DNA from: Escherichia phage DT57C | Sequence record: NC_027356.1 | Strand: one strand, 5' to 3' | Length of the DNA stretch: 64,000 nt | In this document: in pieces, positions 10,735 to 46,765 of the stretch | Layout of the letters: the number at the start of each line of letters is the position of its first letter | Numbering within the stretch: the stretch's first letter is position 1 | Notes under the pieces: generated by a model | The model's input: only the letters and a program-made list of their open reading frames with translations | Database searches by the model: none | Told to the model about the DNA's origin: nothing | Program-made: the position numbers and the translations under genes

Positions 10735-10919
10735 TATTTATTCTCCAGTTTGTCTAACAGCTTATGAGCTGCTAGATTATATTGTTTAAGCTCACGGTTA
10801 AGAATCTCATTCTCACTATTTAATTCTAAATTCTTAGTATTGAGGCGGCTGCACACAATTATCAAGCCTAGGATGGTTAAGAGTGAGCCACCTAGTAATA
10901 CAAGAAGTAATGTTCCCAT
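10734..10919 (-). CDS. Small membrane protein
   Basis: 61-aa ORF with N-terminal TM segment. Confidence 0.45.
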   Translation of the reverse strand: MGTLLLVLLGGSLLTILGLIIVCSRLNTKNLELNSENEILNRELKQYNLAAHKLLDKLENK

Positions 10920-11152
10920 TATTTGATTCCCATGTAACGTTTGAGATATACGATAAAGTCTTCCGCTTTATGTTCTAGGCTACCTTGAGCCACGAATAAC
11001 TTGAGAGCTTCACGCTGTTGTTTGAGATTAGTAACTTCGCTACGCAACTTCACGTTATCGTCAATAACCTGATTGGCTTCACGAGTCTTATGCACAGCAG
11101 TGCTAATAGCAAATACTAATGCAATTGCTAAGATAATTAATATATATTCCAT
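10919..11152 (-). CDS. Small membrane protein
   Basis: 77-aa ORF with N-terminal TM segment. Confidence 0.45.
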   Translation of the reverse strand: MEYILIILAIALVFAISTAVHKTREANQVIDDNVKLRSEVTNLKQQREALKLFVAQGSLEHKAEDFIVYLKRYMGIK

Positions 11153-11442
11153 TAGTTACTCCAAATTAACATCCAACTCTTATCAAGGTTAGATGCTCTA
11201 TTAATTAATTCGCCCATAGAAATGTTATTGTTGCCTATGGCTTCTTGTACAAACTCTTTACCGAAATCATCTACTAGGTATTCTGTATCATTTATAATAA
11301 TCTTGTAGAGAGCTGGGACTAAAGGATGTTGATGATTAAGAGGACTCTCGTTAACAATTATCTCATTCCTTCCCCACGTCGTCTTGAACATTTTGTGGGA
11401 GAGTAGAGCTAAGTGGTTTGACCATACAATATAGCTACTCAC
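11152..11442 (-). CDS. Hypothetical protein
   Basis: 96-aa ORF. Confidence 0.45.
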   Translation of the reverse strand: MSSYIVWSNHLALLSHKMFKTTWGRNEIIVNESPLNHQHPLVPALYKIIINDTEYLVDDFGKEFVQEAIGNNNISMGELINRASNLDKSWMLIWSN

Positions 11443-11983
11443 TACTTATCTCCATTCTTAACTTTGAGAACTTATTATACCAAACTATATGATTATCGTC
11501 AATTACAAATTTATGATAACATGCTGGTACGGTATAAGTTCCATAATCCGTGACACGCTGCACAACCTTGTGTGCACACAGTCGACATCCATGCCCTTCT
11601 AAATGAGATCTAGCAGTCTGCCAGTAATAACCATCGTGGTCTGGACAATAGATCTCAACTTGCTGTTGCATTGTTTTATAGTTTACACGCTCATACCCAA
11701 AGAAAGCCCCATGAGCTGCAATGGCTTTCTTGATAAATATAAGGTTTAGTGCTTCTTGTTGAAAGTCGGGGTGTAGCTGCTTAATCTTAGTTCTATTAAT
11801 AGACCCATCCGATTTGATGAACCTATTTATTGGAAAGTTATTAGCTTCCTCGATTAATAATTCATTTACTTTCTCTCTCATATTATATGCTCTCACAACT
11901 AAGGTGGAAACATTCGTAAGCATCCCCAGTAAACTCTTTACCCTGTAATAAACACTTAGCCTGGTCTTCTGGTACTCCAACAT
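11435..11983 (-). CDS. Hypothetical Cys/His-rich protein (possible Zn-binding); true start may be internal Met (~11881)
   Basis: 182-aa ORF; 5' end overlaps ORF 11883-12086 so an internal start is likely. Confidence 0.45.
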   Translation of the reverse strand: MLEYQKTRLSVYYRVKSLLGMLTNVSTLVVRAYNMREKVNELLIEEANNFPINRFIKSDGSINRTKIKQLHPDFQQEALNLIFIKKAIAAHGAFFGYERVNYKTMQQQVEIYCPDHDGYYWQTARSHLEGHGCRLCAHKVVQRVTDYGTYTVPACYHKFVIDDNHIVWYNKFSKLRMEISSE

Positions 11984-24059: not shown

Positions 24060-24138
24060 ATTACCTCCATTAAGTCTTTTGAATTAACCTAATGTGGATG
24101 AATTTTATTATACATAAATTATTTACCTGTATACAGAA

Positions 24139-24172
24139 AAACCCCAGACTACTTATTCAATAGCTGGGGTTT
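24139..24172 (-). terminator. Rho-independent terminator (aaaccccag...ctggggttt)
   Basis: GC stem with T-rich tail on minus strand. Confidence 0.5.
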
Positions 24173-24180
24173 GTTATTAA

Positions 24181-24495
24181 TCACAGATCGGGGTACTTAT
24201 CTTCTAAACAGTCCGAGCTAATATATTCTTCGAGTCCTACAAAGCCATCAAATTCATCATTTGAAATATCCGTAATCAGTGCTTCCATTTTCCTAATTTC
24301 CGAGGTTTTCATGCCTGCTTTACTATTCTTAAAGTATTTGCGAGGATTCCCGCACATCCAACAAGAACAGATGCAAGGAGTAGTAGCGATAATACCTAAC
24401 CGCGTAGGACTTTCTTCATGAGGGAAGACTGTCCAATACTTCTTGCGGTTGTTCTTTACACGTTGCCGGTGATGACGTCTTAATGCTCGATCCAC
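24181..24495 (-). CDS. Cys-rich basic protein
   Basis: 104-aa ORF. Confidence 0.45.
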   Translation of the reverse strand: MDRALRRHHRQRVKNNRKKYWTVFPHEESPTRLGIIATTPCICSCWMCGNPRKYFKNSKAGMKTSEIRKMEALITDISNDEFDGFVGLEEYISSDCLEDKYPDL

Positions 24496-24576
24496 ACATT
24501 TCTCCTAAAACTTGGGAGATAAATGGAGTTTGCTCGACTACCTTACGTAGTTCGTAGAAACCGTATCCAAGCCCCA

Positions 24577-25020
24577 TTACATCGCCTGAGTAAATGTACG
24601 ACTAATAACATCGTTCTGCTGTTCACGCGTCAGTGCGTTAAAACGTACAGCGTACCCTGAAACACGGATAGTTAATTGAGGGTATTTTTCAGGATGTTTC
24701 TGTGCATCCAAAAGCTGATCACGACTTAACACATTGACATTTAGGTGTTGACCCCCTTCAATTTGAGGGGCGACTTCCACCTTGACTTCACGAAAGGATT
24801 CAGAGTCAAAGTGAGGTGTGATACCTTCTAGATCTTCAACTAGAACTTTCTGCTTAAGTTCGCCATCTTTAGAGTACAGTTGAATAATCTGATTATTATG
24901 AACAATATTAATCACGCCAGATTTAAGATTTTGATATGCTTTCATTAGCTCTCCTGTTTGGTAGTTAGTATTGGATTTGAACCACTGTAGTCGCTCCGTA
25001 TGAAGGAGGTGCATAACCAC
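24577..25020 (-). CDS. Autonomous glycyl radical cofactor (GrcA/YfiD-like)
   Basis: 147-aa ORF; C-terminus [29 protein letters not shown] closely matches the glycyl-radical domain of E. coli GrcA/PflB as recalled. Confidence 0.8.
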
Positions 25021-25220
25021 TATGCCAACTAACTATTATGTTTTACTAGACTAAGTAAGTATTCTTTATACTCTTTAGACCAGCTAGCTTTTTTAAACTT
25101 TCCTGGACGCATAGTCTTAATTCCTAGATTTGGTACTCCGGGAGGGATTTAACCCTGATCTCTCGGTTATCCGCCGAGTGCTTTGGATCGCTAAGCTACC
25201 GAAGCATTAAAATATTTACA

Positions 25221-25541: not shown

Positions 25542-25570
25542 ATTATAGCAATAAATAAGAGAGAAAGCAA
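25542..25570 (-). promoter_or_regulatory. Sigma70-type early promoter
   Basis: -10 25542-25547, -35 25565-25570 (TTGCTT). Confidence 0.6.
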
Positions 25571-30991: not shown

Positions 30992-31492
30992 TTTAAGTAT
31001 TTTTAAGAACTCTCGTAAAAACTCTTAAAAATACAGACGATACCGGGAGAGTCATAAGTCTCACTCATTAAGTATTTCAAGACAAAATACAGTAACGTCT
31101 ATTATTTTCCAGTTTAAGTCAAGGTGACTTAGTGGTTATGCCCTGCGGTATACTGAGGACTCGGTTAGGCTAGGGTCATGACTCCCCGCTTTTTGCTGCT
31201 ACTCAACAGGAATTATCGCGAATTACCTGTGCTATTGTGCACCATTAGTGGCATCTCTCATGCCAGCATTTCCCACTTTGTGGATAGTTTGAAAAACTAC
31301 TCCGATATGGAGGGAGAACTTCACTATCCTAGAATACCTTCTAAAGTTCTTCTTTAGCCTGGACATAGTTAAATCGTAATAAAACTATTCAGCAGACTGG
31401 TTGATTAGCCTGGAACCAACTACCGCGTGGTTTAGGCAGTGCGCAACTAACCTCGGAAGCTTTTACGTTAAAAGCACCAGTTATCCAGCTCT

Positions 31493-31562
31493 TACCGATC
31501 GTAGGATTCGAACCTACATCTTCCACCAGTTACGGCTTGATAATACCGTTTATACTAGATCG
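31493..31562 (-). tRNA. tRNA-like (anticodon not resolved; no encoded CCA)
   Basis: Perfect T-arm GTAGG-TTCGAAT-CCTAC and acceptor GCCGATC/GATCGGT. Confidence 0.35.
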
Positions 31563-31640
31563 GCAGTGTTACTACATAAGTGATTTCCACACCCCACCAT
31601 CAATAAATTAGGGAAGAATTACTCTCTAATTTATGAATAT

Positions 31641-44073: not shown

Positions 44074-45900
44074 ATGACAGAGAATGAATTAATTGAGAAT
44101 TGCAAAGGTCTGCTCACTCTAACTGCGGATAAAGACTTACAACATAATAATGCTAATAAGCCTAGTGAGATGTTCCATACTCAAAGAGACTTATTGGCCG
44201 GAGAAATCAACAAGTATCTAGTATCGCAGGAATTACCCAAACATCTATTAGACGCCCATAATCTAGGTAAGATACACATTCATGATATGGATTACAGAGC
44301 GCAGGGGTACACTAACTGTTGCTTAGTAGACCTTGGTGGCATGCTGAAGAATGGTACTAAAATTGGTAATGCAAATATTGAAACTCCTAAATCCATAACT
44401 ACTGCGTGTGCAATCACTGCTCAGATTATTGCCCAAGTATCTGGTGCTCAGTATGGTGGCACTTCTATTGATCGTATCGATGAGGTTCTAGCACCATATG
44501 TCAGAAAGTCTTACAATAAACACCTGGGTCGTGGTCTACGTTGGCTCAAGGATGAAAGAAAAGCTGCTGTGTACGCTACTGAGCTTACTGAAAAAGAGTG
44601 TTATGATGCATTCCAAGCCCTAGAGTATGAAACTAATTCATTATTTAACTCTAACGGACAGACTCCTTTTGTTACGCTTGGCTTTGGGCTAGGACAGGGG
44701 TGGGAGGAAAGGATGATTCAGAAAGCCATCCTCCAAAACCGTATTAAAGGTTTAGGTGCTGCTGAGTCAACCCCTATCTTCCCTAAACTAGTATTCTCAG
44801 TTAAAGAAGGATTAAATAAAAATCCAGGCGATCCTAACTACGATATAAAACAGCTAGCACTTGAGTGTTCTGCTACCCGTATGTACCCGGACTATTTAAG
44901 TTACGAGAAAGTTGTAGCTGTTACTGGTGATTTTAAAGCCCCTATGGGTTGTCGTAGTTTTTTATCTGCCATCCCCTCTGGAGAAACCGCAGGGCGTAAT
45001 AATTTAGGTGTTGTGTCTATCAATCTACCTATGGTTGCTGCTGAGGCAGATGGAGTTTTTGAAGATTTCTGGGATATTCTAGACAAATATGTGGATGAGG
45101 CTTTTGAAGCGCATGACTTCTTCTTAAACAGACTGAAGAAAGTTAAGGCTAAACAAGCCCCTATTCTTTATATGCACGGTGGTTTTGGTGTGCGTTTAGA
45201 TGGGGAAGAGTATGTATGGCCTATTTTTGAAGGTAGATCTTCTGTATCTCTTGGGTACATTGGGGTCTATGAGATGTGCCAAATAATGTTTAGTCTACCA
45301 CAAACTCATAGGGACTGTATTGAATTTACAGAGGAAGTTCTCACTCACCTAAAAAATCGTTGCGAAGTTAAAGCTAATGAGACTAATCTTGGGTTTAGCT
45401 TGTATGCTACTCCTAGTGAGTCTCTATGTAATCGCTTTAATAAACTACTGGAACGTAGATTCCCAGAGTATTCTTGGTTAACAGATAAAGGCTATCTTAC
45501 TAATAGTCACCATTTGGACGTAAGAGAGAAGGTAGCTCCAGATACTAAATTTGAGTATGAAGCTCATTTCACCAAAATAGCTAATGGTGGTAATATATCA
45601 TTTGTGGAACTACCACAAATGAAAAAGTTCCATAAAGCTCTTGAATACGTAGTAGATAAGGGACTAGAATGTAGCCATTATATTGGTGTTAATATACCGA
45701 TTGATGAGTGCTTCAACTGTGGGTATATGGGTGAATCTGTTGCCTCTGAACGTGGGTTTGTATGTCCGAGTTGTGGATCTGAAGAAATAGAGGTTACACG
45801 TAGGGTTTGCGGGTACCTGGGGTCCCCGGGCAGTAGGCCTTTCAATTCTGGGAAACAAAAAGAAGTGCTTGGTAGAGTAAAACACTTAAATCTTAAGTAA
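44074..45900 (+). CDS. nrdD: Anaerobic ribonucleoside-triphosphate reductase
   Basis: 608-aa ORF; C-terminal Zn-ribbon CxxC...CxxC and glycyl-radical motif RVCGYLGS. Confidence 0.8.
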   Translation: MTENELIENCKGLLTLTADKDLQHNNANKPSEMFHTQRDLLAGEINKYLVSQELPKHLLDAHNLGKIHIHDMDYRAQGYTNCCLVDLGGMLKNGTKIGNANIETPKSITTACAITAQIIAQVSGAQYGGTSIDRIDEVLAPYVRKSYNKHLGRGLRWLKDERKAAVYATELTEKECYDAFQALEYETNSLFNSNGQTPFVTLGFGLGQGWEERMIQKAILQNRIKGLGAAESTPIFPKLVFSVKEGLNKNPGDPNYDIKQLALECSATRMYPDYLSYEKVVAVTGDFKAPMGCRSFLSAIPSGETAGRNNLGVVSINLPMVAAEADGVFEDFWDILDKYVDEAFEAHDFFLNRLKKVKAKQAPILYMHGGFGVRLDGEEYVWPIFEGRSSVSLGYIGVYEMCQIMFSLPQTHRDCIEFTEEVLTHLKNRCEVKANETNLGFSLYATPSESLCNRFNKLLERRFPEYSWLTDKGYLTNSHHLDVREKVAPDTKFEYEAHFTKIANGGNISFVELPQMKKFHKALEYVVDKGLECSHYIGVNIPIDECFNCGYMGESVASERGFVCPSCGSEEIEVTRRVCGYLGSPGSRPFNSGKQKEVLGRVKHLNLK

Positions 45901-46492: not shown

Positions 46493-46765
46493 GTGAGGGA
46501 TTGTACAGTGTTTTTGACTGGTAATACCAGTCAAGATATGATTATTGTGGTTGGTTGCTCTAACCAAGTAATTAACTTCTACTGGGAATTATTCCCTGTT
46601 CTTAACCGTACTGCTGCGAAACTTATGGTAGTTAACTACTATGATGTATCAGTATCCAACGGTAGAACTGGAATAAATCTTCAAGATTTAAGAGCTGTTA
46701 GCTATATGCTAGAATTTAGTCCAGATCTTGAAATGTGTAAAGCCCTACAACAATTTAAGGTGTAA
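46493..46765 (+). CDS. Hypothetical protein (start codon uncertain, GTG or internal ATG)
   Basis: 90-aa ORF. Confidence 0.4.
   Translation: MRDCTVFLTGNTSQDMIIVVGCSNQVINFYWELFPVLNRTAAKLMVVNYYDVSVSNGRTGINLQDLRAVSYMLEFSPDLEMCKALQQFKV

Follow-up and report, generated by a model that had tools for sequence, protein, structure and literature searches.

What does a phage gain from a small protein that ends in a glycyl-radical signature, and which enzyme does that protein serve? The question arises at a minus-strand locus of Escherichia phage DT57C (NC_027356.1), of which we analysed one stretch of 64,000 nucleotides (here called the window, to which all coordinates refer). The initial annotation of this locus had described a GrcA-like glycyl-radical spare part of 147 aa in the same window as a gene for anaerobic ribonucleotide reductase (nrdD), had proposed that the protein may rescue damaged host pyruvate formate-lyase (PFL) or the phage's own NrdD, and had been unable to name an activase gene nearby.

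The phage and its relatives

By nucleotide comparison, the window belongs to a Tequintavirus (T5-like; family Demerecviridae), of whose genome it forms the left 64 kb. Phage DT571/2 (KM979355.1) is collinear with it from base 1 at 98.7-99.9% identity in a local comparison, a few indels excepted. The region around grcA is matched by 447 phage records, nearly all of them T5-like phages of Escherichia or Salmonella; the top match is Escherichia phage Gostya9 (97%), and T5 itself stands at 95.5-95.7%. Two kinds of record label stand out among the relatives: MG065692.1, labelled 'Campylobacter phage C13', carries a T5-type grcA at 94% identity, and the left arm of the window also has matches in 16 records under the name 'Listeria'. 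Both are probably mislabelled or contaminated T5-like sequences.

Segments at ~10835-11445 and ~24998-25174 are missing from DT571/2, which is otherwise 99% identical; the tRNA region that separates grcA from the T5.058-like ORF described below lies in the second segment. On the 3' side of nrdD, at 46493-46765 (plus strand), ~1.2 kb is missing compared with DT571/2 and Gostya9 (breakpoints ~46510 and ~46657). The missing sequence comprises most of a Sir2-like gene and the homologues of T5.104 and T5.105, and what is left is only a 90-aa ORF, a Sir2 C-terminal remnant (PHROG 18062, E = 2e-43; PHROG 2162, positions 187-241). At 31492-31565 (minus strand), ARAGORN places a tRNA-Ser whose anticodon, ACT, is unusual (Rfam tRNA, 39 bits); the DT571/2 equivalent is annotated within a stable RNA named 'rnaX'.

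Gene model and transcription unit of grcA

The features on which the argument rests are as follows, given in the direction of grcA transcription and ending with nrdD.

25542..25570, minus strand: promoter like the T5 early promoter P11 (TTGCTT, 17-nt spacer, TGcTATAAT with extended -10), identical to the P11 region annotated in NC_005859
25221..25511, minus strand: T5.058-like ORF, 96 aa, first gene of the unit (PHROG 4760, E = 7.6e-54; T5 annotation)
25134..25205, minus strand: tRNA (tRNA-Ile in T5 and Gostya9; Rfam tRNA, 43.5 bits)
24959..25034, minus strand: tRNA-Met (CAU), directly upstream of grcA (ARAGORN; Rfam RF00005 at 24962-25034, 46.3 bits; annotated in T5 and Gostya9)
24951..24955, minus strand: Shine-Dalgarno sequence AGGAG of grcA, read from the sequence, seven bases upstream of the ATG
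24577..24945, minus strand: grcA-like coding sequence, corrected model, 122 aa plus stop, ATG at 24945
24580..24780, minus strand: glycyl-radical domain, residues 56-122, equivalent to YfiD 61-127 and PflB 693-759 (beta-strand, Gly loop and C-terminal helix)
24655..24657, minus strand: codon of Gly97, the predicted radical site by its position in the motif TIRVSGYAV, equivalent to PflB Gly734
24181..24495, minus strand: T5.055-like ORF, 104 aa, last gene of the unit (ORF list; PHROG 4499)
24136..24170, minus strand: rho-independent terminator (ACCCCAG, 16-nt loop, CTGGGGT, TTTTT), homologous to a terminator annotated in T5
44074..45900, plus strand: nrdD, class III (anaerobic) ribonucleotide reductase (Pfam NRDD, E = 1.7e-157; Gly_radical, E = 7.7e-14)

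The YfiD and PFL domain limits used to assign residues 56-122 were taken from PMC8683613.

The protein of 147 aa described initially corresponds to a maximal ORF that does exist at 24577..25020 (minus strand, GTG start), but its codons 1-25 (24946-25020) overlap the same-strand tRNA-Met gene, which rules out this gene model and leaves a coding sequence of 122 aa. The AGGAG sits within the 13-nt gap between the 3' end of tRNA-Met and the grcA ATG, and the same 122-aa start is annotated in T5 (T5.056), Gostya9 (T59_00049c) and DT571/2 (grcA). With its own Shine-Dalgarno sequence and ATG, a tRNA upstream and a stop downstream, grcA is a stand-alone gene rather than the last part of a longer one for a glycyl-radical enzyme. 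A further ORF of 53 aa at 24416-24577 (minus strand), annotated as a CDS in DT571/2, has an ATG that overlaps the grcA stop (TAATG) and itself overlaps the T5.055-like ORF in a different frame.

Identity to features annotated in T5 puts grcA in one short predicted early transcription unit on the minus strand (P11-type promoter, T5.058-like ORF, tRNA, tRNA-Met, grcA, T5.055-like ORF, terminator). A simple promoter and terminator consensus scan found no minus-strand element; it missed the P11-type promoter because the -35 hexamer has only 3/6 matches, and the terminator because its loop is too long. The placement of both elements is a prediction from their homology to features annotated in T5. 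ARAGORN called no tRNA at 25134-25205, where Rfam detects one; this tRNA carries a 2-nt deletion relative to T5 in the T-arm region, owing to which it may be impaired or a pseudo-tRNA. The T5.055-like ORF at the end of the unit encodes a cysteine cluster, CICSCWMC (CX3CX2C), and a very basic N-terminus. Its homologues are found also in Rhizobium, Acinetobacter and Erwinia phages, and neither this ORF nor the other neighbours of grcA have counterparts near T4 vs.6.

Identity of the 122-aa protein

The C-terminal half of the 122-aa protein copies the radical-bearing C-terminal domain of PFL, and the likeness is much too strong to be due to chance. Residues 62-103 match Pfam Gly_radical (PF01228; E = 3.7e-18), and phmmer searches of the PDB aligned residues 48-121 with residues 51-126 of E. 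coli GrcA (6owr, E = 1.3e-30) and residues 61-122 with residues 698-759 of E. coli PflB (1h16, E = 4.3e-27). The initial reading of a GrcA-like glycyl-radical spare part is borne out by these matches and agrees with GenBank, where DT571/2, Gostya9 and other phages have the gene as 'putative autonomous glycyl radical cofactor GrcA'. In amino acid sequence the protein is 100% identical to the product of DT571/2 grcA and 99% to that of T5.056 in T5. It also matches PHROG 1209 over its full length (E = 4.6e-48; residues 1-122 on positions 1-121 of a 121-position profile), a family labelled 'unknown function'.

The top NCBIfam match is TIGR04365 (IPR011140; autonomous glycyl radical cofactor GrcA; E = 1.9e-35), in which only residues 49-122 align and the score, 121.9 bits, lies below the equivalog cut-off of 170 bits. 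As controls, E. coli GrcA scored 234 bits and T4 Vs.6, the Y06I of the biochemical literature, scored 151.1 bits. Since the validated Y06I is likewise under the cut-off, that threshold delimits bacterial GrcA rather than spare-part function. Of the two phage types, the T5-type protein is more divergent than the T4 type.

The gene also goes under other names. In T5-like GenBank records it appears as 'pyruvate formate-lyase', '2-ketobutyrate formate-lyase', 'acetyltransferase-related' or 'hypothetical protein', and T5-like genome papers just tabulate it, for example as 'putative acetyltransferase-like protein'. Identity as a formate-lyase (PflB or TdcE, TIGR01255) is ruled out by a score of 86 bits against a cut-off of 994 and by a length of 122 aa, which covers only positions 683-744 of the 744-position model. 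The formate-lyase and acetyltransferase names are over-annotations, because the catalytic barrel (~700 residues) with its Cys418/Cys419 pair is absent.

When all six frames of the window were searched for [STIV]xR[IVT][CSA]GYx[GACV], the signature of glycyl-radical proteins, two sites only were returned, one in the grcA ORF and one in nrdD. In an alignment of the protein with its T5 counterpart, T4 Vs.6, E. coli GrcA and PflB, 47 columns are invariant, among them a 10-residue stretch at the radical site and a 19-residue core. The Gly97 column is invariant across T5, T4 Vs.6, GrcA and PflB, and with Gly97 and its flanks unchanged, the conserved radical glycine on which the initial annotation had staked its reading is present on alignment.

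Homologues were found by tblastn in 1584 phage records, ~426 of them at at least 90% identity (T5-like phages) and the remainder mainly in T4-like phages of Escherichia, Klebsiella, Shigella, Aeromonas and others. The window gene differs from Gostya9 grcA by 12 nt and 1 aa and from T5 grcA by 16 nt, and the single amino acid change that accompanies the 16 differences from T5 argues for strong purifying selection. The GC content of grcA (39.3%) equals the phage average (39.1% in the window), which argues that the gene is an old resident and not a recent capture. On sequence grounds, the T5-type protein belongs to an older, distinct lineage of this device and is no fresh copy of host grcA. Among the best 80 loci of representative bacterial genomes, which ordinary PFL C-termini saturate, none matched residues 1-23 of the phage protein; the T5-type N-terminus may, on this slight hint, be phage-specific.

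Comparison with known spare-part proteins

According to reviews and a 2021 mechanistic paper (PMC8683613; PMC13450708; both citing Wagner et al. 2001), no spare-part proteins other than YfiD of E. coli and Y06I of T4 have been validated. The PFL-activating enzyme PFL-AE installs the radical on these two proteins, which then restore the activity of oxygen-cleaved PFL. Residues 1-60 of YfiD are disordered, yet they aid its binding to cleaved PFL and also aid activation (PMC8683613).

Like T4 Vs.6, the T5-type protein is a stand-alone phage protein of ~120 aa; the two are 52% identical over residues 1-122 and have in common a MKAYQ start, an identical 19-residue core and membership of PHROG 1209. 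The N-terminal region has, at 60 residues, the length expected from YfiD; its comparison with T4 Vs.6 gives 19 identities and a global alignment score of 40.5, and that with YfiD, where similarity is weaker, gives 19 identities and a score of 13. In its C-terminal domain T4 Vs.6 hardly differs from E. coli GrcA (59/62 identical), whereas the T5-type domain is equidistant from GrcA, PflB and T4 (48-49/62) and closest to TdcE: its last 62 residues are identical to the E. coli proteins at 51 positions in TdcE, 49 in PflB and 48 in GrcA, and to T4 Vs.6 at 48. T4 also has its own activase, NrdG, encoded two genes from nrdD, whereas the T5-type phage is without one in the window and in DT571/2 bases 1-100000.

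Like E. coli GrcA (YfiD; 6OWR), the T5-type protein is small and duplicates PFL 693-759 in its C-terminal half, with 74% identity over residues 51-122. It differs from GrcA in its N-terminal 50-60 residues, which are marginally similar, in its TIGR04365 score of 121.9 bits against the cut-off of 170, and in being encoded by a phage-borne gene of 39% GC that is predicted to be co-transcribed with tRNAs. The likeness to the radical domains of E. coli PflB and TdcE (79-82% identity between residues 61-122 and the C-termini of the two enzymes) includes the activase-recognition motif RVSGYAV; unlike these enzymes, the T5-type protein has no ten-stranded catalytic barrel with the Cys418/Cys419 pair.

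Activases and NrdD

The nrdD gene reported initially was recovered at the same place, and its product is 52% identical to E. coli NrdD. As the initial annotation had indicated, no activase can be named: with three queries (PflA and NrdG of E. coli, NrdG of T4), tblastn returned nothing under E = 2.8 either in the window or in bases 1-100000 of DT571/2, and in the positive control the T4 locus was found at 3e-45 and 5e-107. No activase is annotated in the relatives Gostya9 or DT571/2. When PflA was searched by tblastn against all phages, T4-type NrdG genes were found, and only 30 Salmonella-phage records matched, against 288 carrying GrcA. The T5.055-like ORF, flagged by a six-frame scan for CX3CX2C, was considered as an activase or partner and rejected: its 104 aa leave no room for a radical-SAM core, it matches no Pfam or NCBIfam family, and it has homologues in Rhizobium and Acinetobacter phages.

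Since the phage lacks an activase in the window and in DT571/2 bases 1-100000, GrcA and NrdD must depend on the host activases PflA and NrdG. Two observations fit such reliance. The phage GrcA contains the exact PFL-AE recognition sequence RVSGYAV, as expected of a protein activated by host PFL-AE, and in phage NrdD the segment around the Gly loop is nearer to E. coli NrdD (26/32 identical, counted on the sequences) than to T4 NrdD (19/32), which suggests that host NrdG may activate the phage NrdD. The nrdD gene is a separate system and not the partner of GrcA.

Proposed function and alternative interpretations

We consider it very probable that the gene encodes a T5-type autonomous glycyl-radical cofactor, that is, a GrcA/YfiD-like spare part for PFL. 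That such a gene is present is already known, as it is annotated (T5.056 in T5; grcA in several T5-like genomes) and the mechanism is established for E. coli YfiD and T4 Y06I; our literature searches found no experiment on any T5-type protein. The spare-part function is most likely, by analogy with T4 Y06I at 52% identity. In the mechanism we propose, grcA would be transcribed together with two tRNAs from the T5 P11-type early promoter. The phage protein would bind host PflB, or its paralogue TdcE, once oxygen had cut that enzyme at the radical glycine; host PflA (radical-SAM) would abstract a hydrogen from Gly97 within RVSGYAV, and the phage domain would supply the missing beta-strand, Gly loop and helix, so that pyruvate could again be converted to acetyl-CoA and formate. 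T5 degrades the DNA of its host and halts the expression of host genes, and an infected cell is therefore unable to remake the 85-kDa PflB. The benefit would be that a cheap 14-kDa phage patch keeps up the fermentative supply of acetyl-CoA and ATP in the fluctuating oxygen of the gut.

Of the two rescue targets proposed initially, host PFL stands as the predicted client (49/62 identities to PflB, 51/62 to TdcE), but phage NrdD does not. A spare part that replaces the oxygen-cleaved radical domain of NrdD would make sense of the presence of nrdD in the same genome, ~19 kb from grcA, and of the fact that T4-like and T5-like phages carry both a grcA-type gene and nrdD; spare parts for glycyl-radical enzymes other than PFL have also been speculated on, although never found (PMC8683613; PMC13450708). 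We nevertheless consider it very improbable, because a BLASTP comparison between the 122-aa protein and NrdD of the phage gave no alignment in the radical domain (the best match, E = 7.3, lay elsewhere), whereas the GrcA domain is 79-82% identical to PflB and TdcE instead. The radical region of NrdD has a zinc ribbon and reads RRVCGYLGSPGSRPFN, unlike the motif region of GrcA; the motif and its flanks differ as well (RVCGYLGSP in NrdD, RVSGYAVRF in GrcA), and the two genes are non-adjacent and on opposite strands.

Which PFL paralogue is served is a narrower matter. That the protein serves TdcE (2-ketobutyrate/pyruvate formate-lyase) specifically, or both paralogues, and not PflB alone, is favoured by the identities in the last 62 residues (TdcE 51, PflB 49), by those in the 25 residues after the radical glycine (TdcE 23/25, PflB 20/25, counted by eye) and by the top nucleotide match in E. 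coli genomes, which is tdcE at 76% against 73% for pflB. This is a variant of the main explanation and not a different mechanism, and we hold it to be unlikely: the difference amounts to just two to three residues, the part before the glycine is slightly nearer to GrcA and PflB, and of the two targets PflB is much the more plentiful in E. coli. Decidedly improbable, and a little more so than the TdcE variant, is that the T5-type protein, with its possibly phage-specific N-terminal half and TdcE-like tail, in a phage with NrdD and without an activase, forms a functionally distinct branch of spare parts, tuned to another client (for example TdcE), to displacement of the radical domain of undamaged enzyme, or to host activases in the shut-off cell. 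An interpretation without any repair, in which the protein would shut down or redirect host fermentation, either by tying up host PflA as a decoy substrate or by competing with the radical domain for its place in intact PflB, could draw on the exact PflA recognition motif RVSGYAV, on an N-terminal half unlike that of bacterial GrcA and on a report of in vivo activity of GrcA towards full-length, inactive PflB (Kammel and Sawers 2022, as cited in PMC13450708). We find it hardly credible, the least so of these interpretations, because the T4 homologue is described in PMC8683613 as restoring PFL activity, not inhibiting it, and because the residues of the radical loop and docking helix are all conserved, which a pure decoy would not need. 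The repair of oxygen-damaged host PFL is thus the function that we favour for the T5-type protein.

Significance

The naming of grcA is inconsistent across hundreds of T5-like genomes and could be harmonised. Two spare parts have been validated to date, and the divergent T5-type protein offers a cheap third test case. If it were to prove a distinct branch, it would amount to a tool by which the phage controls host fermentation and not to a simple copy of host GrcA. T5-like phages, with two glycyl-radical proteins (GrcA and NrdD) and no activase, would also provide a clean natural test of cross-activation.
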